39,908 nucleotides of DNA from a virus (taxonomy: Duplodnaviria; Caudoviricetes). Each line of letters starts with the position of its first letter. Position 1 is the stretch's first letter. Under the pieces are notes generated by a model that had not been told where the DNA came from, did not search any database, and saw nothing but the letters and a program-made list of their open reading frames with translations. Both the position numbers and the translations under genes were made by a program. The DNA is taken from positions 1-39,908 of the IMG/VR virus record IMGVR_UViG_3300042898_000321; one strand, 5' to 3'. Positions 33,462-39,908 of this stretch are shown here, piece after piece.

Positions 33462-33652
33462 GTAAACCCGCGCCACTTTTTCTTTTGCATCCCGGGTCGC
33501 TTGTTTGCCAATCCGGGCTTTTGCGCTGTGTCACACCACCACTTCCCGTCCCATAAGCTGTACCCCATGTACCCGTACAGATTTGTCTCGTACACACCGA
33601 CATGGACGGGTTTGATGTTCACTGGAAACCAGCGTGTCATCTTCTTGCTCAT
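33446..33652 (-). CDS. Hypothetical protein (68 aa)
   Basis: T.WFP...KPVHVGVYE...YS.WDG..W...WRG pattern. Confidence 0.7.
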   Translation of the reverse strand: MSKKMTRWFPVNIKPVHVGVYETNLYGYMGYSLWDGKWWCDTAQKPGLANKRPGMQKKKWRGFTEKQS

Positions 33653-33741
33653 TTGATAATCCTCATAAACGCGCCGCAACGGGCGCATTTGTAAATGAGT
33701 TGGCCATGAACGGGCTCCCAGCGGTGCTGGCAGTCCGTCAT
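33649..33741 (-). CDS. 30-aa zinc-finger-like microprotein (not in ORF track)
   Basis: MTDCQHRWEPVHGQLIYKCARCGAFMRIIK; abuts the upstream stop and overlaps the downstream start. Confidence 0.55.
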   Translation of the reverse strand: MTDCQHRWEPVHGQLIYKCARCGAFMRIIK

Positions 33742-34146
33742 TTACTGCCCCTTGACCAAGGCAATCACCTTGGGGTCAGCGTTGGACAAAAACTGCTGGG
33801 CATAGGCTTGGCGTGCGTTCACACGGTACGTGGAGGCCAGCATTTTCTCGATCTCCATGTTGCGGTCCCGGTTCTCACGAGCTGCCTTGACGTCGATCAC
33901 ATCAGCGACCCATTTATATTTGATGTCTGAGTTTGGCTCGATCTCAAGGTCGTCATCAACAGTCATGACCTCGGCAATCTTTAGACCGTTGTGATTTCCT
34001 GATGGCACCACCACCAAGTCACCAACCTCCAGCGCAAGGTGGGTCACGTAGGTGTAGGTGCTGCTCATGCTGCCGTTTTCGCTTTGGAAGGCCACGGTGC
34101 ATGTTTTGGCGTCTTCACGCAAGATGGCTGCAATGTTCTTGTCCAT
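33742..34146 (-). CDS. Hypothetical protein with SH3-like N-terminus
   Basis: AAGGAG SD; V.F......YTY.....L.VGD.VVVP. Confidence 0.75.
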   Translation of the reverse strand: MDKNIAAILREDAKTCTVAFQSENGSMSSTYTYVTHLALEVGDLVVVPSGNHNGLKIAEVMTVDDDLEIEPNSDIKYKWVADVIDVKAARENRDRNMEIEKMLASTYRVNARQAYAQQFLSNADPKVIALVKGQ

Positions 34147-34156
34147 GGTGTTCTCC

Positions 34157-34438
34157 TTAGGCTGTAAATTCGATGGCTTGCAACTTGGAGATCCGGGCAT
34201 TGATCTCGGTCAGGGTCTTTTGGTAGTCGGCCATGACTTTTTGCTTGTGCTTCTCCAGCGCGGCAATCTTCTGTGCGCGTGGGTCGTAGTTGTCAGGGAC
34301 GTCGATCTCGATCTCTTGCTCACCGACATAGGAGCGGTGCTCGTCGTCTTCCAGCTTGCACGAGAAGACTTGAAACTGGCCCTCTGTTTCCCATGACCAT
34401 TGGCAAAAATGAATGTGAACGGTGGTTTTGACTTTCAT
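34157..34438 (-). CDS. Hypothetical protein
   Basis: AAGGAG SD; C-terminal coiled coil ending I.KLQAIE. Confidence 0.75.
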   Translation of the reverse strand: MKVKTTVHIHFCQWSWETEGQFQVFSCKLEDDEHRSYVGEQEIEIDVPDNYDPRAQKIAALEKHKQKVMADYQKTLTEINARISKLQAIEFTA

Positions 34439-34473
34439 GGTGCTCTCCTTGATGGGGCCGAAGCCCCGTGGGT

Positions 34474-34707
34474 TTAAATTGCTCGGGCCATCTTGATGTG
34501 GATGACGCGCTGCACGACCTTGTGGCGTGAGGTGCCTGCCTTGACTTCGGCCACCGTGTCAAAGCCACGGACGCCACAGCCCTTATCGTCTTCAAAGTCC
34601 CAGCCTTCTTCGAGGGTGACGATGATGCTGTTGCCGATGTCTCGCTCGTCGTCAATGTGAGCGATCCAGTGGCGCGAAGCCAGCAGGTTGTCGAGTGTTT
34701 TGCTCAT
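34474..34707 (-). CDS. Hypothetical protein
   Basis: GGAGG SD before MSKTLDNLL. Confidence 0.7.
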   Translation of the reverse strand: MSKTLDNLLASRHWIAHIDDERDIGNSIIVTLEEGWDFEDDKGCGVRGFDTVAEVKAGTSRHKVVQRVIHIKMARAI

Positions 34708-34719
34708 GCTGACCTCCAA

Positions 34720-35013
34720 TTAACGTGAGGTGGTCTTGACAGAGAACACAGCAGTGATGCTGGTGTTGTCGATGATGATGTCCTCTGGAATGTTGAGGAC
34801 CTTCTGGATGTTTTTCCAGTCAACAACCTTGCGGTTGGCCTCGACCACTGTGGCCTTGAAGAGGTTGCCCTCGACAACCTTGTCGCCACCGGCAGTGGCT
34901 GCATCTTTGATGGCGTCCTTGATGGCGTCAGCTTCTTTGGTCAGCTCTGCGATTTGAGCCAACAGAAAACCCAAGCGGTCGACTTGGGTCAGAGCGATGT
35001 CGTTTGCGTTCAT
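34720..35013 (-). CDS. Hypothetical protein (coiled-coil N-terminus)
   Basis: AGGA SD before MNANDIALTQVDRLG.L.AQIA.L; first gene after promoter copy 3. Confidence 0.75.
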   Translation of the reverse strand: MNANDIALTQVDRLGFLLAQIAELTKEADAIKDAIKDAATAGGDKVVEGNLFKATVVEANRKVVDWKNIQKVLNIPEDIIIDNTSITAVFSVKTTSR

Positions 35014-35023
35014 GATCAGGTTC

Positions 35024-35086
35024 CTTTCAGTTACACAGCTCGTTTTGCTGTAGAAGTATTTGAACACAAAATTCAAGGTTCACAAC
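35024..35086 (-). promoter_or_regulatory. Repeated promoter/operator/leader, copy 3
   Basis: TTGAA-N7-TTCAA at 35060-35076; ACAGC-AAAACGA-GCTGT leader hairpin. Confidence 0.7.
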
Positions 35087-35105
35087 ACCCTTTTGAAAAT
35101 ATTTT

Positions 35106-35381
35106 CTAGGTGGTTTCCCTAATACGCTGGATGGTGACGTTCAGCGCCTTCATCTCATCCATCTTCCGAACATGCCATGCGCGTTTTTGCCCGTGGATTC
35201 CAAGAAGGCTTCCCCTATGACAGTCAGCGCAAAGTGGCATTGAAGTAAACCACTGCCCCTGATTGATCTCGTGGCACTCGCTGGGGCCAGAGGCACCGCA
35301 CACAACGCAATCCATTTCCTTAAGCAGAGCAACATGTCTGCGCTCTGCCGCCGTCATGTTTGGTTTATTTTTACTCTGCAT
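35106..35381 (-). CDS. Small HNH-like zinc-binding nuclease (Ref/DUF968-like)
   Basis: C..CG......HE and PLC..CH.G..GIH. Confidence 0.7.
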   Translation of the reverse strand: MQSKNKPNMTAAERRHVALLKEMDCVVCGASGPSECHEINQGQWFTSMPLCADCHRGSLLGIHGQKRAWHVRKMDEMKALNVTIQRIRETT

Positions 35382-35889
35382 TTAAATGCCTCCAAGTCTT
35401 TCTGTTGATTATTCTTTTTGCGTTGGTTGGACTTAAACCGTATTGCTGAACAGCCTGTTTTGGACTCAAGCCGAGCTTTCTTATTGAGAGAACAATTTCG
35501 TTGCTCAATTTGACGTTGTTAGCCCTCTCTCCGACTTGCCATGTGCCGTGCAGTTTTTTATCTTGATGGTTGCCAGATCTTGTATCCCATCGAAGGTTGT
35601 CAACATTGCAGTTCAATCGGTTGCCGTCGTTATGACAGGCTTCTAACCCATCGGGCCTTACGCCTTTGAAAGCCTCAAGAACAACCTTGTGCAGAAAAAT
35701 TTGTTTTCTTTTTCCGGGGCTAGTCAGGTTAACAACGTAATAACCTCGACTCCCAAGTATTGGATTAACAATCGTTCCCCCCATCCATCTTTTGTTTCTG
35801 CTGTTCTGGCGTGCAAAAGATCTGACTTTGCCATCGGAACTGACCTCATAAAACTTTTCAAAACCCAAAACAGGTTTCCAAATTTCCAT
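35371..35889 (-). CDS. NUMOD4-HNH homing endonuclease
   Basis: EIWKPV.GFE..YEVS..G.VRS; H..V..AF, ACH.DGN..N....NLRW.T...N; AT-richer than its flanks. Confidence 0.9.
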   Translation of the reverse strand: MEIWKPVLGFEKFYEVSSDGKVRSFARQNSRNKRWMGGTIVNPILGSRGYYVVNLTSPGKRKQIFLHKVVLEAFKGVRPDGLEACHNDGNRLNCNVDNLRWDTRSGNHQDKKLHGTWQVGERANNVKLSNEIVLSIRKLGLSPKQAVQQYGLSPTNAKRIINRKTWRHLNAE

Positions 35890-35921
35890 GTTGAACCTCA
35901 CATGATGCGAACCAAGAAGAG

Positions 35922-35971
35922 TGTGGCAGGCAGTGGTTCAATCTGCTTTTCCCCCGCTAAAGGTAGCCACA
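35922..35971 (-). ncRNA. Three-way-junction RNA leader A (C4-like antisense element)
   Basis: TGTGGC-TA-[CCTT TAGC GGGG]-GAAAA-[GCAG ATTGAACCA CTGC]-CT-GCCACA; loop complementary to GGTTCAA at the SD of the HNH gene. Confidence 0.7.
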
Positions 35972-35978
35972 TCAAATT

Positions 35979-36326
35979 CTACAGCGTGGCCTTCTCGACG
36001 TGGCGGTTGCTGGCCTCCTGAGACCGCCAGACCTCGATTCGGGCTTGGGCGGCTATCAGCATCCACCGAAGGCGTTCGCGCTTCTCCACGGCCTGTCTGA
36101 GGGCCTCAAGATGGTCCTTGTACCGCTTGCTGGCGTAGGCCTCGCGCTCTTGCATGGCGGCGGTCTTGTAGTCGCCTTCGGTCTCAGCCGCACGCATCTG
36201 CTCGGCCTTGATCGTCTTGCGCATCTCTTCCATGTAGATCTTGTTGGCCTCGGCCTGCGCGTACTCGCCGGACTGAGCAATCATGTAGTCGACTGCGGCT
36301 TGGGGGTCAATAAGTTTGTCGCTCAT
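35979..36326 (-). CDS. Hypothetical helical protein
   Basis: YAQA.A...Y.EE.RK..KA...QEREAYA...Y and IEVWRS..AS.R. Confidence 0.75.
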   Translation of the reverse strand: MSDKLIDPQAAVDYMIAQSGEYAQAEANKIYMEEMRKTIKAEQMRAAETEGDYKTAAMQEREAYASKRYKDHLEALRQAVEKRERLRWMLIAAQARIEVWRSQEASNRHVEKATL

Positions 36327-36505
36327 TTGGATGCCTGCGCTTTACTGTAGACAGTGAATTGACGGGACTTCTGCATGTGGGTGTTGCGCTTGGCAGCGAC
36401 CGATGCTTTGAACTCCTTGGTGGAGGTCACCTCGCTGGGCTCTTCCCGCCAATTAAAGGCGTTGCCGTAGCTCTTGACAATTTTTGTTCCGGGCCAGTAA
36501 ATCAT
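36323..36505 (-). CDS. Hypothetical protein (60 aa)
   Basis: ATGA overlaps at both ends; WPGT.I.KS.GNAF.W. Confidence 0.65.
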   Translation of the reverse strand: MIYWPGTKIVKSYGNAFNWREEPSEVTSTKEFKASVAAKRNTHMQKSRQFTVYSKAQASK

Positions 36506-36966
36506 GCTGCCATCCTTCTCATTTTTCGTTGGTCAAATTCTTTGTTGACTATGTCAACGGCCTTTTCCATGTCCTTGACGGTAATGACTTCCATTTGGGC
36601 GTCATGCAACTCCATTACGAGATTCAGATGGCTCATCTCATGAGCCTTGAGAATGAAGCGGCCAGTCTTAGCGCCACGCGATCCAACCTCATGCAAGGCA
36701 TCAAGCCCTTGCTGAACAACATCCCCGTAGTCCTCACCGAAACCCAATCGGTACAGAGCCTCGACGACGTTGACCATGTTGATCAAAATGTCCATGTCAG
36801 CACGCATGGCTCGACCCTTTGTCACGACCTCCATGGCTGCGTGGTTTTTGATCTTCAGGTCGATCAGGTAGCTATCGTGCTCCTTGACTGGCTTGAGGCT
36901 CTCCAGCACGTATGCCAAGGGGTTGATCAGCACGCCCTTGGGGCGGTACTTGCTGCGCTTTTTCAT
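36502..36966 (-). CDS. Hypothetical protein (154 aa)
   Basis: GGAGGT SD before MKKRSKYRPKGV; ATGA overlap with rusA. Confidence 0.75.
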   Translation of the reverse strand: MKKRSKYRPKGVLINPLAYVLESLKPVKEHDSYLIDLKIKNHAAMEVVTKGRAMRADMDILINMVNVVEALYRLGFGEDYGDVVQQGLDALHEVGSRGAKTGRFILKAHEMSHLNLVMELHDAQMEVITVKDMEKAVDIVNKEFDQRKMRRMAA

Positions 36967-37313
36967 GCGACCTCCACGATCATCTTCCCGGGCTTTGACC
37001 CGTACTCTCGGTAGATCGTCACGGGCTGAAACTGTCGGTCGTTGATGCCTAGAGCGTCGGCCATGCCGTCCAGCCCAGCCTTGGCTGCAGCAAGGCAGTT
37101 GTCGGTGTCTCTCAAGCGCTTGTCGGGCATCACAAAAGTGATGGTCAGGGCCAAGTTCTGGTCGGTTGGCTTCCAGTCCTTGAGCTGGCCCTTGGTCAAC
37201 CAAGCGCTGTTGTCACGGTACAGCGTCTTGGCCTTGTGCGTCACCGTCCAGTGCGTGCCCTTGGACCTGTTGGGGAACAGGCAGGCTGGAGGAAAGTCAA
37301 GTTCGATCTTCAT
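36963..37313 (-). CDS. rusA: RusA-like Holliday junction resolvase
   Basis: PD.R.RDTDN...A.K..LDG.ADALGIND..F catalytic pattern. Confidence 0.8.
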   Translation of the reverse strand: MKIELDFPPACLFPNRSKGTHWTVTHKAKTLYRDNSAWLTKGQLKDWKPTDQNLALTITFVMPDKRLRDTDNCLAAAKAGLDGMADALGINDRQFQPVTIYREYGSKPGKMIVEVA

Positions 37314-37588
37314 GACTTTATGCGACCTCTGATGGCTTCAGCGGCGTTTTTCAGGGCTGTGCATGTCTCACCCTCATCCTCTTGCGCGGCAAGCTCTGCA
37401 ACGAGATCTGCGCAGGCCTCGTTGGTGATCTTGATGGCCTGCTTGGTGGTCTGGACGGCCACCTGCATGATCTCGGCCTTGCCCAGCGCCAGCGCCTCAT
37501 CGAACTCGGCTTGGGTGAACATGGTGACGTGACCACCACCAGACAGAATTTGTCGAGCCAGTTGGCTCATCTCTTTTTTCTCAGACAT
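37310..37588 (-). CDS. Hypothetical protein
   Basis: GGAG SD; ends EACA........AAEAIR.R. Confidence 0.7.
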   Translation of the reverse strand: MSEKKEMSQLARQILSGGGHVTMFTQAEFDEALALGKAEIMQVAVQTTKQAIKITNEACADLVAELAAQEDEGETCTALKNAAEAIRGRIKS

Positions 37589-37862
37589 TTGCTTTCTCCT
37601 TGTTCATGCGGTTTCGTAAATCAGCGAGGGCTTCTGGCCCCCGTCTCTTAGTGATGTCATCGCAGACTTGCAGCCACCATGATCTGGCGGCTACGGACCC
37701 GACTTCGCCAGTCTTGGTCTTGTGCCGCAAGATCCACTCCCGGGCTTCGCAGTTTTTCAGATGCTCTAAGGTCTCCGGAGACCCAAAGGGATCGTCGTAT
37801 AACGGACGAGGAGACGTAGCCTCCCTCACGGACGGCGTCGAGGTTTTTCTTGGCTTCTTCAT
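37581..37862 (-). CDS. Hypothetical protein
   Basis: CEAREW...I.KRRG..A...L...M; overlaps both neighbours; true start uncertain. Confidence 0.55.
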   Translation of the reverse strand: MKKPRKTSTPSVREATSPRPLYDDPFGSPETLEHLKNCEAREWILRHKTKTGEVGSVAARSWWLQVCDDITKRRGPEALADLRNRMNKEKANV

Positions 37863-37869
37863 ACGTCAT
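37657..37869 (-). CDS. Possible overlapping small protein MTYEEAKKNLDAVREG...
   Basis: GGGG SD-like sequence and a helical phage-like N-terminus ending W.SGDL; nested in another frame of 37581-37862. Confidence 0.4.
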   Translation of the reverse strand: MTYEEAKKNLDAVREGGYVSSSVIRRSLWVSGDLRASEKLRSPGVDLAAQDQDWRSRVRSRQIMVAASLR

Positions 37870-38275
37870 CTGACCCCCGGGCAATGTTGGCCTTGATGTC
37901 CCGCTTCAGCTCGGCCAACTTGGCAAGAGCCTCAGACTTCAGCATCTCGGTGCGGGCCTTCTCGTACTGGGTCGGCTGGCGCTCGATTCGCAGGACAGGC
38001 TTGGTAGGGATGGCGGGGCCATCGTTGCAGGTCTTGCGGAAGGCAATGGCCGAAGGCGGCATGTTGGCCGGGAGGTGGCCCAAGGCGTACTCCAAGGTGG
38101 GCTTGTAGGTCAGGAACTTGCCCAGCTCTTTCTGCCACACCGAGCGCACCAGCTCGGGGTCAACCTGCTCCCAGTGACGGGTGAAGCTGGCCCCATAGAC
38201 GGCGCTCATGTAGCCAAAGATGTAGTCCAGCCCCTCGCTGGGTTCACAGAAGTCAGTTTCCAAGTAATTTGACAT
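37859..38275 (-). CDS. Replication protein P-like (helicase loader) protein
   Basis: IF..M..VYG..F...W...W..EL....AL..L....PP....F...C; directly after the initiator gene; GGAG SD. Confidence 0.55.
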   Translation of the reverse strand: MSNYLETDFCEPSEGLDYIFGYMSAVYGASFTRHWEQVDPELVRSVWQKELGKFLTYKPTLEYALGHLPANMPPSAIAFRKTCNDGPAIPTKPVLRIERQPTQYEKARTEMLKSEALAKLAELKRDIKANIARGSDDV

Positions 38276-38969
38276 TGTTGCCACTCCCTAAAAGTCCACG
38301 AGTCAGGCCGCTGATGACCTTTGCGTTGCGATCCCCTTGGGTCTCGAAGGAACCCCGGGCCTGTTGCTTCTGTGGCTTTGGCTCGTAGACGTCTTGCCAA
38401 GAATTGACGATTGACTGCTCCAAGGCCTTCTGGACGTCGTGACCCTCTTGGCGGAACTTGTCCAGCTTCTTGATGACCAGTTGTGCGGCAAAAGATGTCA
38501 TGGGCTTTTTGATGCCCTTGCGCATGGCCTCGAACTCTCGCCAAGTCTCCAGAGGGAGCCAGTCGGGCAGATCCACAGAAGTCTTGGCTACCTCTTTAGA
38601 AGAAGGTTCATTTACAGGTTTACCTTCCTGTTTACTAGCCAGATTCTGACCCACCCCTCGGTCAGATTCTGACTGACCCTCGGCCAGATTCTGACCCACC
38701 CCCTCAAGATTCAGGTGGTACTGGTTTGGCAGTGAAACACCTTCAATGGCCTTGTGGATGATGCGCAGGTAACCCGCCTCCTCCAAGGCCGCAATGTGAC
38801 CCTTGAGGGTCGACAGACCCATCGAGCACTCTTCTGCCAGCAGCTTGTGGGACGGGTTGCATTGGCCTGTGTGGCTGTTGCAGTGGTTTGCCAGCATCAG
38901 CAGAACCAGCTTCTGGCCTGCGTTCGCGGTCTTCTGGCCTATGGCCCATGTCATCGCTTGGAAGCTCAT
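38253..38969 (-). CDS. Replication initiator (lambda O-like, N-terminal winged HTH)
   Basis: KLVLL.LAN.......C.PS...LA.EC.M..ST....I..LE..GY.; contains iterons; C-terminal LP.WL...W..F...RK; GGAGGT SD. Confidence 0.8.
   Translation of the reverse strand: MSFQAMTWAIGQKTANAGQKLVLLMLANHCNSHTGQCNPSHKLLAEECSMGLSTLKGHIAALEEAGYLRIIHKAIEGVSLPNQYHLNLEGVGQNLAEGQSESDRGVGQNLASKQEGKPVNEPSSKEVAKTSVDLPDWLPLETWREFEAMRKGIKKPMTSFAAQLVIKKLDKFRQEGHDVQKALEQSIVNSWQDVYEPKPQKQQARGSFETQGDRNAKVISGLTRGLLGSGNNVKLLGN
38638..38715. repeat. Iterons of the putative replication origin
   Basis: CAGATTCTGAC cores with AGATT at 38641, 38664, 38686 and a partial copy at 38707 (21-23 bp period), next to an AT-richer tract at ~38590-38636. 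Confidence 0.8.
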
Positions 38970-39385
38970 ACCTCCACCCCCGGAAAACCTAGCCAACATT
39001 CATTTGCTGCAACAACACCAACTGCGTAAAGAGCTTTTTGGGTGTGGATCGTTGGCTCTTCTTTGCTAGATAAAAATCCAGCCATGAGCCAATAAAGATC
39101 ATCCATGCCCCCCGGCATTCCGCTTATGTCAGCACGAGCCAACAGGTCGTGAATTTTCTTGTCGAAGTCATGTCGTGCAGAGTGGCAGCTCTCGCAAAGG
39201 ACCGCAAGTTGATCGTCGTCGTATTCCCAAGGCTCTCGGCCCTGAACATAGTGCTTGTGATGGACGTGAAGTGTCTTCTCTTGTGCGCCGCAACACACAC
39301 AAGCCCACTCCTGAGTCTGCAAAACCTCTAACCGCCTCTTTTGCCAACGAGGGTCGCGCAATTTTTGAGAATAGCTTGTAGCCAT
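38966..39385 (-). CDS. HNH endonuclease-like protein
   Basis: Y...L.DPRWQK.R, C..CG, L.VHH..Y, LC..CH...H. Confidence 0.85.
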   Translation of the reverse strand: MATSYSQKLRDPRWQKRRLEVLQTQEWACVCCGAQEKTLHVHHKHYVQGREPWEYDDDQLAVLCESCHSARHDFDKKIHDLLARADISGMPGGMDDLYWLMAGFLSSKEEPTIHTQKALYAVGVVAANECWLGFPGVEV

Positions 39386-39410
39386 GGTCCCACCTTTTCG
39401 AAAACCACCT

Positions 39411-39485
39411 TGAAAGAAACCAACGGCAGGCGAGGTGGGTACGCTCTTCGGCGGGGTAGCTACTCCCCACCTATCCGGGTTTCAA
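39411..39485 (-). ncRNA. Three-way-junction RNA leader B (C4-like antisense element)
   Basis: GAAACCCGG-ATA-[GGTGGGG AGTAGCTA CCCCGCC]-GAAGA-[GCG TACCCACCT CGC]-CTG-CCG..GGTTTC; loop complementary to the AGGTGGG SD. Confidence 0.7.
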
Positions 39486-39488
39486 AAA

Positions 39489-39518
39489 ATCATATCACCC
39501 AAAAAGATCTGGGCGCAA
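39489..39518 (-). promoter_or_regulatory. Putative promoter TTGCGC-18-TATGAT (extended -10)
   Basis: TGn-TATGAT immediately upstream of leader B. Confidence 0.55.
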
Positions 39519-39695
39519 GTCCTTGCGTGTTACCAGACCTTGCGTGGCGTCCTCAATCGCCCGGGCCAGCACAGGGCTTGGCTTGACCTTCTTGGCGATC
39601 AGCTTGGACATCCACTCAGCAGTGATCCCAAGATGTCGTGCCATCTCAATCTTCGCGCCACGAGGCTCTTCGGAAAAGTACTGTTGCAGGTTCAT
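39495..39695 (-). CDS. Cro/YdaS-like HTH regulator
   Basis: A..LGIT...MS......PS...A.AIE.AT.G.VTR.DLRPD.F. Confidence 0.85.
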   Translation of the reverse strand: MNLQQYFSEEPRGAKIEMARHLGITAEWMSKLIAKKVKPSPVLARAIEDATQGLVTRKDLRPDLFG

Positions 39696-39702
39696 GCCGA
39701 GG

Positions 39703-39785
39703 ATTGTACTTTGAATTGACAATTCAACAAGACCCCACAAAATACTCCAGTATTCTTGTACACGAAGTTCAAGTTGTGGTGTAAT
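39703..39785. promoter_or_regulatory. Divergent promoter region with two operators
   Basis: Leftward -10 TACAAT at 39703-39708; TTGAA-N7-TTCAA at 39711-39727; TTGTA-N7-TTCAA at 39756-39772; rightward TGTAAT. Confidence 0.65.
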
Positions 39786-39823
39786 GCAGCTACGCCATGT
39801 GGCGTGTCACTCGAAAGCAAATC

Positions 39824-39908
39824 ATGAAAGACAAGCACTTCAGCCGGTGTACCCCGTACACCACCAAGACCGGTCTGCAGATCGGCATCGCCTACACCCA
39901 ACCCCTGC
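39824..39908 (+). CDS. Partial hypothetical protein, first gene of the divergent operon
   Basis: MKDKHFSRCTPYTTKTGLQIGIAYTQPL..., after a GAAAG SD like that of the repeated leaders. Confidence 0.55.
   Translation, partial: MKDKHFSRCTPYTTKTGLQIGIAYTQPL

Follow-up and report, generated by a model that had tools for sequence, protein, structure and literature searches.

The two leaders and their locus

We analysed a 39,908-base virus record (IMG/VR IMGVR_UViG_3300042898_000321; the whole stretch is hereafter the window), whose best-matching sequencing runs are lake-water metagenomes, with no RNA run among those listed; contigs from four runs contained related DNA only. Its minus strand carries, at 33500-39908, an early and replication arm with a cro-like gene, an HNH gene, an O-like initiator gene, a RusA-like gene and a second HNH gene. 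The subject of this study is a pair of RNA leaders, A and B, each lying ahead of one of these HNH genes and folding as a three-way junction of stems P1, P2 and P3. The leader elements are confirmed as real and beyond chance, since both match the same Rfam model and the match between the P3 loop and two downstream sites extends across their family. The features of leader A, of leader B and of the neighbouring genes are as follows (SD, Shine-Dalgarno; nt, nucleotides; aa, amino acids).

35922..35971, minus strand: leader A, int-alpA-like three-way junction (RF02996, 32.3 bits, E 0.00059; stem covariation)
35976..35981, minus strand: -10-like box of leader A, overlapping the upstream gene's stop codon
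35966-35970 with 35923-35927, minus strand: P1 of leader A
35952-35963, minus strand: P2 of leader A
35956..35959, minus strand: P2 loop of leader A, 4 nt with a 2-nt GC self-complementary core, a weak predicted kissing loop
35947-35951, minus strand: junction of leader A
35943-35946 with 35930-35933, minus strand: P3 of leader A
35934..35942, minus strand: P3 address loop of leader A
35909..35914, minus strand: site 1 of A, predicted pseudoknot partner or decoy (duplex -8.1 kcal/mol; family register)
35891..35897, minus strand: site 2 of A, between SD and AUG (duplex -9.3 kcal/mol; 2-nt overlap with the SD-like GAGG at 35896-35899)
39416..39483, minus strand: leader B, long-P2 subtype of the int-alpA-like three-way junction (RF02996, 20.1 bits, E 0.84)
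39489..39497, minus strand: extended -10-like box TG-n-TATGAT of leader B (hexamer 39489-39494; TG-n 39495-39497)
39474-39483 with 39416-39427, minus strand: P1 of leader B, interrupted
39465-39471 with 39450-39456, minus strand: P2 of leader B
39457..39464, minus strand: P2 loop of leader B, two 5' purines followed by a 6-nt palindrome, a predicted kissing loop (self-duplex -10.9 kcal/mol including one flanking base)
39433..39441, minus strand: P3 address loop of leader B
39405..39410, minus strand: site 1 of B (duplex -9.7 kcal/mol)
39389..39395, minus strand: site 2 of B, coinciding with an SD-like sequence (duplex -13.1 kcal/mol)
35371..35889, minus strand: NUMOD4 + HNH_3 endonuclease gene, 172 aa (Pfam and PHROG), downstream of leader A, AUG at 35887-35889
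38966..39385, minus strand: CxxC-type HNH gene, 139 aa (Pfam and PHROG), downstream of leader B, AUG at 39383-39385
38253..38969, minus strand: HTH_36, O-like replication initiation gene (phrog_678, E 1e-35; Pfam), downstream of leader B
39495..39695, minus strand: Cro-like gene of the YdaS family, immediately ahead of leader B; the anchor for synteny

A sequence-only reading of this DNA had described two homologous structured leaders ahead of unrelated HNH nuclease genes. Its coordinates were all exact when located by script on the minus strand, and both parts of the description hold: the leaders match one Rfam model with covarying stems, and Pfam and PHROG identify each downstream protein as an HNH nuclease, with no significant pairwise BLASTP similarity between the two (best E 1.1). 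An ATGA overlap joins the stop codon of the CxxC-type HNH gene to the start codon of the replication gene.

Within the window, no Rfam model scores at or above its gathering threshold. Over 35500-39908, int-alpA (RF02996) was the sole Rfam family at E ≤ 10, and it matched both leaders, below its gathering cut-off of 35.8 bits in each case. Both align full length to model positions 1-71, with the UA, GAARAG and CU junctions, and the window has no third copy. Relatives carrying A's P2 (L024, L038 and L107) score 38.8-40.6 bits and one sharing B's P2 (L113) scores 37 bits, all above the cut-off, which 28 of 50 homologue-bearing records pass; L123, the closest relative of A, lies below it at 29 bits. 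The C4, c4-2, c4-a1b1 and isrK models gave no match at E ≤ 10 over the same interval. As a positive control, phage P4 matched C4 (74.9 bits, E 1.6e-13, CI region), isrK and c4-a1b1, and not int-alpA. Because close relatives pass the RF02996 cut-off and the P4 control separates the families, we name the leaders int-alpA-like: they are divergent forms of a catalogued orphan motif, not C4. The kinship with C4 or c4-2 considered in the sequence-only reading is thus replaced, and membership in C4, c4-2 or isrK is rejected for lack of any covariance-model match.

The int-alpA motif, typed "Gene; sRNA" in Rfam, is said to originate in the 2017 survey by Weinberg. It has the same three-way junction and junction letters as our leaders, and its Rfam consensus itself has ACGU as P2 loop and, ahead of a downstream AAGG, a CCUU loop. 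It differs in that the model as printed includes no loop-to-target pairing and ends before site 2, and in that B has a longer P2. The context here is that of a phage (a virus record with downstream phage genes), and integrase or alpA genes do not adjoin the leaders. The available portion of the main text of PMC5737381 does not mention alpA, and the accessible parts of papers that do mention int-alpA (PMC12370729, PMC13612085) give no function for it. We found no publication assigning a function to int-alpA or RF02996 in the searched literature, which largely lacked subscription journals.

Each predicted promoter borrows the stop codon that ends the preceding gene, as TAG (35979-35981) within A's -10 box and as TGA (39495-39497) of the cro-like gene serving as B's TG-n; a consensus promoter scan of the window lists neither. 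An AUG-UGA mini-frame at 35898-35903 (minus strand) overlaps A's SD and is kept in L123, not in L024, L038 or L107. Single-sequence folding was discarded as an identifier of the family fold, which it singles out in neither leader, and leader A alone folds no better than shuffled sequences (z -0.09). A third copy of B's target, at 39466-39472 (minus strand) in the 5' strand of B's own P2, drives the minimum-energy fold of that leader; because P2 stems vary freely in relatives, this copy may be incidental.

Covariation of the P3 loop with two downstream sites

Homologues were collected by pattern scans, three covering viral contigs and one covering genomes, together with HNH loci and the window, and all counts are among the matches listed. 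At least 438 non-redundant matches were obtained, of which at least 187 passed a filter on stems and loop length: 85 of 114, 28 of 108 and 64 of 95 in the viral scans, 7 of 118 in genomes, one from HNH loci and two from the window. The genome scan, mostly chance matches by this stem filter, was used as a negative control. Carriers of the motif include many phage contigs and cultured phages belonging to several genera, with Enterobacter and Pseudomonas phages among the latter. Covariation is seen in those P1 pairs that the search pattern does not fix: the first of them is retained in 130 of 138 sequences, with double changes numbering 56. Also recurrent, though in part because the search pattern imposes them, are the junction letters and a P1 variant with a G-A mismatch. 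In 86 of 156 members a -10-like hexamer has its end 6-14 nt ahead of the core, compared with 3 of 156 at 30-38 nt, so that the position just behind a -10 box, first noticed for both window elements, is enriched across the family. This placement locates the 5' end at P1 and speaks for an RNA leader.

To examine the P3 loop, we took one member per distinct loop (n = 136) and compared the 55 nt downstream with the 55 nt upstream. A second complementary site of at least 5 nt was present downstream in 76 of the 136 loop types versus 3.4% of non-cognate pairs, a score reached by 0 of 10,000 permutations, and two such sites lay in the upstream 55 nt for only 1 of 136. The signal is not a Shine-Dalgarno artefact, as loops free of anti-SD words retained a second site in 38 of 60 cases. 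It held in 19 of 40 loops after thinning to mutually 5-mer-disjoint types, repeated in a synteny-chosen set (15 loop types, 0 of 20,000 permutations) and was absent in 48 pattern matches that failed the stem filter and represent chance matches. At one locus (L124), which encodes a homologue of the leader A nuclease at 69% identity, P2 is kept while the P3 loop and both targets have changed together. Five more distant homologues of this nuclease have no leader, and a search for homologues of the leader B nuclease returned one distant locus, likewise without a leader. Complementarity is therefore kept in homologues, and the proposal that loop and tandem targets covary stands.

In 133 of 158 members the two sites are separated by 9-15 nt. 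The gap between the end of site 2 and the start codon measures 5-11 nt in 108 of 140 cases, in line with the earlier placement of the downstream target over the ribosome-binding region. In many members site 2 lies just 5' of the SD or partly over it, and in B and many long-P2 members it is the SD-like sequence itself. The tandem sites, which the sequence-only reading compared with the duplicated targets of C4 and CI RNAs, are not equivalent duplicates from the viewpoint of a free antisense RNA, because their registers differ: pairing runs flush to the 3' end of the loop at site 1 in 109 of 126 members and at site 2 in 41 of 126 (kinship ignored in this test). The linker to site 1 contains 4% G and 46% U. 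Together with the register at site 1, this G-poor linker suggests, by established pseudoknot anatomy, an H-type geometry there. Site 1 is the stronger site in 75 of 126 members and site 2 in 43. In broader terms than any one mechanism, loop pairing near the ribosome-binding site very probably controls translation.

P2 self-complementarity and genomic context

The self-complementarity of the P2 loop escaped the sequence-only reading. Palindromes of 4 nt or more occur in 39 of 54 distinct P2 loops, whereas shuffled loops yield 14.5±3.1 (0 of 2000 shuffles reach the observed number), and 13 of the 16 possible 4-mer cores are used. P3 loops, in contrast, are depleted of palindromes (11 of 136 versus 21.5 expected). 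Off-centre placement of the P2 palindrome is seen in 36 of 39 loop types, with a 3' shift in 33 that leaves extra 5' bases, and 11 of the 15 non-palindromic P2 loop types, GACG included, contain a CG or GC core. The P2 loop does not pair with downstream sequence (3.11 nt, versus 3.22 nt upstream). Since a 4-nt palindromic core cannot pair within a single hairpin loop, pairing between two RNA copies is the simplest reading. Retroviral dimer-initiation loops (HIV-1 DIS and the GACG loop of murine leukaemia virus, MuLV) resemble P2 in mediating RNA homodimers through a palindromic loop with flanking unpaired purines or through GACG, a tetraloop that forms a two-base-pair kissing loop in retroviruses, as described in the accessible part of PMC5874298. 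The analogy concerns this one part, with no homology claimed, and the retroviral loops serve genome packaging.

The synteny of leader B was traced through 73 relatives of the cro-like gene, 45 of which have a leader 27-31 nt after this anchor. All 45 of these orthologous leaders carry a palindromic P2 core, of four kinds that include GATC, and combine P2 and P3 loop types in mixed fashion. They run straight into an open reading frame (ORF) beginning like DUF1376 in 42 cases and into HNH-like ORFs in two, the last being cut off; three DUF1376-like proteins tested match PHROG families annotated "primosomal protein". Because 42 of 45 orthologous leaders directly precede a replication-type gene, we assign B to the replication operon: it is a replication-operon leader behind which the HNH gene has inserted itself, this gene being coupled to the initiator via ATGA. 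Synteny and the ATGA overlap thus bear out the placement of leader B at the head of coupled replication genes. The accompanying idea that both leaders restrain toxic nucleases suits A and is at odds with B, whose slot normally holds a replication-type gene without a nuclease.

Many distant cro relatives lack the leader and have the next gene within about 20 nt of cro (L544, L547, L550-L555 and L558-L567), which makes the leader optional for the replication operon. Another five of the 73 hold a different RNA in the B slot behind a similar -10 box (L504 and L505, about 1415-1535; L507, 207-327; L548 and L549, about 1418-1530). This RNA is attenuator-like, with a long segment complementary to a downstream segment and then a run of 8-9 U, and has no Rfam match at E ≤ 1 in the three tested.

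The surroundings of leader A are of another kind. The gene upstream of A was followed through 80 relatives, of which a single one (L575, spotted by eye where the search pattern missed it) carries a leader plus HNH gene, and 44 have the next gene adjacent. From this one case in 80 we conclude that A and its HNH gene form an optional insertion, with A belonging to a mobile cassette. Leaders of the A type are also found ahead of endonuclease VII and HNH-AP2 genes. In another locus (L126, about 1350-1500), a homologue of the leader A nuclease follows a truncated piece resembling the start of the window ORF at 35106-35381, an arrangement that suggests this ORF as an insertion target of the nuclease family. 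Family-wide, a Pfam search of the N-terminal parts of 130 downstream proteins returned 25 DUF1376, 17 HNH, 22 other matches and 66 without a match.

Leaders also co-reside. Seven of 50 records searched have two matches and an eighth has a match away from the known locus; with the window, these records give nine co-resident pairs, all differing in both loops. Cognate pairing beats cross pairing in 18 of 18 co-resident leaders. Loop A nevertheless finds two 5-nt matches downstream of B, at -5.4 kcal/mol against -9.3 for its own target. The earlier notion of orthogonal silencers is therefore sustained as to the preference for cognate pairing. It is not sustained as to selection, which we do not claim, as the pairs are nine only and differing loops would often arise by chance among so many loop types.

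A possible concentration-sensing brake and its alternatives

We tentatively favour, at somewhat less than even confidence, a concentration-sensing translation brake, in which a P3 decoy pseudoknot would keep translation on and P2-P2 dimerisation would shut it off. In a lone transcript, the P3 loop would fold back on site 1 as an H-type-like pseudoknot, leaving site 2, the ribosome-binding region, free for translation. At higher transcript levels, kissing between P2 loops would place the P3 loop of a second copy on site 2 and prevent initiation; alternatively within the same model, each of the two P3 loops may switch to site 2 of its partner. With rising phage copy number, such a brake would cap the replication initiator behind leader B, via the coupled HNH gene, and the homing-type nuclease behind leader A. 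Sequence comparison is consistent with this model in the fold, the -10 placement, the covariation of P3 with both sites, their differing registers and the self-complementarity of P2. A longer P2 palindrome also goes with a site 1 relatively more stable than site 2 (rho 0.31, kinship ignored), as the swap model predicts. More broadly, int-alpA leaders may be, with slightly lower confidence again, a widespread phage riboregulator with two independent, evolvable address codes, one in P2 for dimerisation solely with its own kind and one in P3, which would toggle from decoy to the partner's ribosome-binding site.

Several observations weigh against the brake. In both A and B, site 2 is the stronger site, contrary to the family trend, so a lone RNA could also repress itself. 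The P2 loop of A has only its 2-nt core, with a self-duplex of about 0 to -2 kcal/mol, and kissing may therefore be negligible in that leader; 4 of 54 P2 loop types lack both a 4-nt palindrome and a CG or GC core. In B, the minimum-energy fold (-27.3 kcal/mol, compared with -23.4 for the family fold) pairs the P3 loop with the third target copy in the P2 strand. Finally, the search pattern was built from A and B, and other subfamilies are under-sampled.

All the two-site evidence would fit a purely cis two-state switch, in which a single transcript would have its P3 loop on site 1 in the on state and on site 2 in the off state. The choice would depend on folding kinetics or on binding of a protein or ligand to the conserved junction, and the P2 palindrome would serve something else. 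The recurring junction letters and P1 mismatch variant agree with it, to the extent that they are not imposed by the search pattern, as do the stronger site 2 in both window leaders and the low kissing potential of A. This switch leaves unexplained why P2 loops change among 13 cores with self-complementarity kept, and we regard it as rather unlikely. A trans-acting antisense RNA of the C4, CI or IsrK kind is less probable still. Here a short form made by termination or processing, perhaps as a P2-linked dimer, would bind the tandem sites of incoming or read-through mRNA with immunity-like specificity. The tight site spacing is what two linked loops would need and the linker is U-rich, and precedent exists: according to the available part of PMC4825925, seqA and seqC are pairing partners of CI RNA, and the short form of IsrK targets the long form of the same RNA. 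The two sites nonetheless differ in register, targets in the 55 nt upstream are confined to 1 of 136 loop types, and no C4 or isrK match was obtained over 35500-39908 although the same search finds both in P4. At least 5 U in the 8 nt after P1 occur in only 27 of 126 members, so an intrinsic terminator does not seem to be general, and neither does release of a short RNA by that route; no terminator-like site is listed at the 3' end of leader A or B.

The pseudoknots of repZ and repBA in IncI and IncB plasmids are activating. By the same logic, loop pairing beside the SD could open or present the ribosome site, with dimerisation or site 1 in competition. Two facts agree with this: the position of site 2 in many members, immediately 5' of the SD or overlapping part of it, and the many replication proteins encoded downstream. 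Yet in B, as in many long-P2 members, the SD-like sequence itself serves as site 2, and in A site 2 lies between SD and AUG; pairing at site 2 of A or B should block the ribosome, and activation seems very unlikely. Least probable of all, and in our view barely credible, is an element acting as DNA, with the palindromes as protein-binding or methylation sites or as single-stranded DNA hairpins for replication or homing. The replication and nuclease genes nearby and the common 4-bp palindromes of B-slot cores, GATC among them, speak for it. Against it stand the fixed start distance behind the -10 box, targets that track the start codon, the 13 different cores and the off-centre palindrome, which breaks DNA dyad symmetry.

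In C4 of phages P1 and P7, specificity is set by covarying loop and target. Like the leaders, C4 of P1 and P7 and CI of P4 (RF01695) are phage RNAs with a three-way junction whose single-stranded parts pair with target sites and silence downstream genes (available parts of PMC4825925 and PMC8198154). CI RNA differs in having targets both upstream and downstream and in acting by termination, whereas both targets lie downstream here, and the P2 loop of C4 is a UUCG-type tetraloop where ours is a varying palindrome. In IsrK of Gifsy-1 (RF01394), leader and regulator are likewise one sequence acting on its own long transcript (PMC4825925, same portion); IsrK differs by activating translation, by its clear terminator and by the lack of any sequence or model match here. 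For leader A, a further likeness is found in T4-type homing endonucleases (I-TevI, segB, mobE), where RNA structure limits nuclease translation. Those ribosome-binding-site hairpins are simple and relieved by promoter choice, and the accessible part of PMC2988022 describes no address loop, tandem sites or self-complementary loop.

Collectively, this analysis proposes for an orphan motif of the RNA catalogue a concrete mechanism that can be tested cheaply. Were the two-site pairing alone to hold up, the family would still gain a function, close in spirit to C4 and CI control. If the dimer model is true, a leader of 60-100 nt would provide protein-free negative feedback with swappable specificity loops at the dosage of a replication initiator, a decision point central to the phage, and a ready-made part set for orthogonal translational control. 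Should both address codes prove real, an mRNA would sense its own concentration without a protein or a separate antisense gene, in a device that would control phage replication copy number and would have been borrowed by homing endonucleases.

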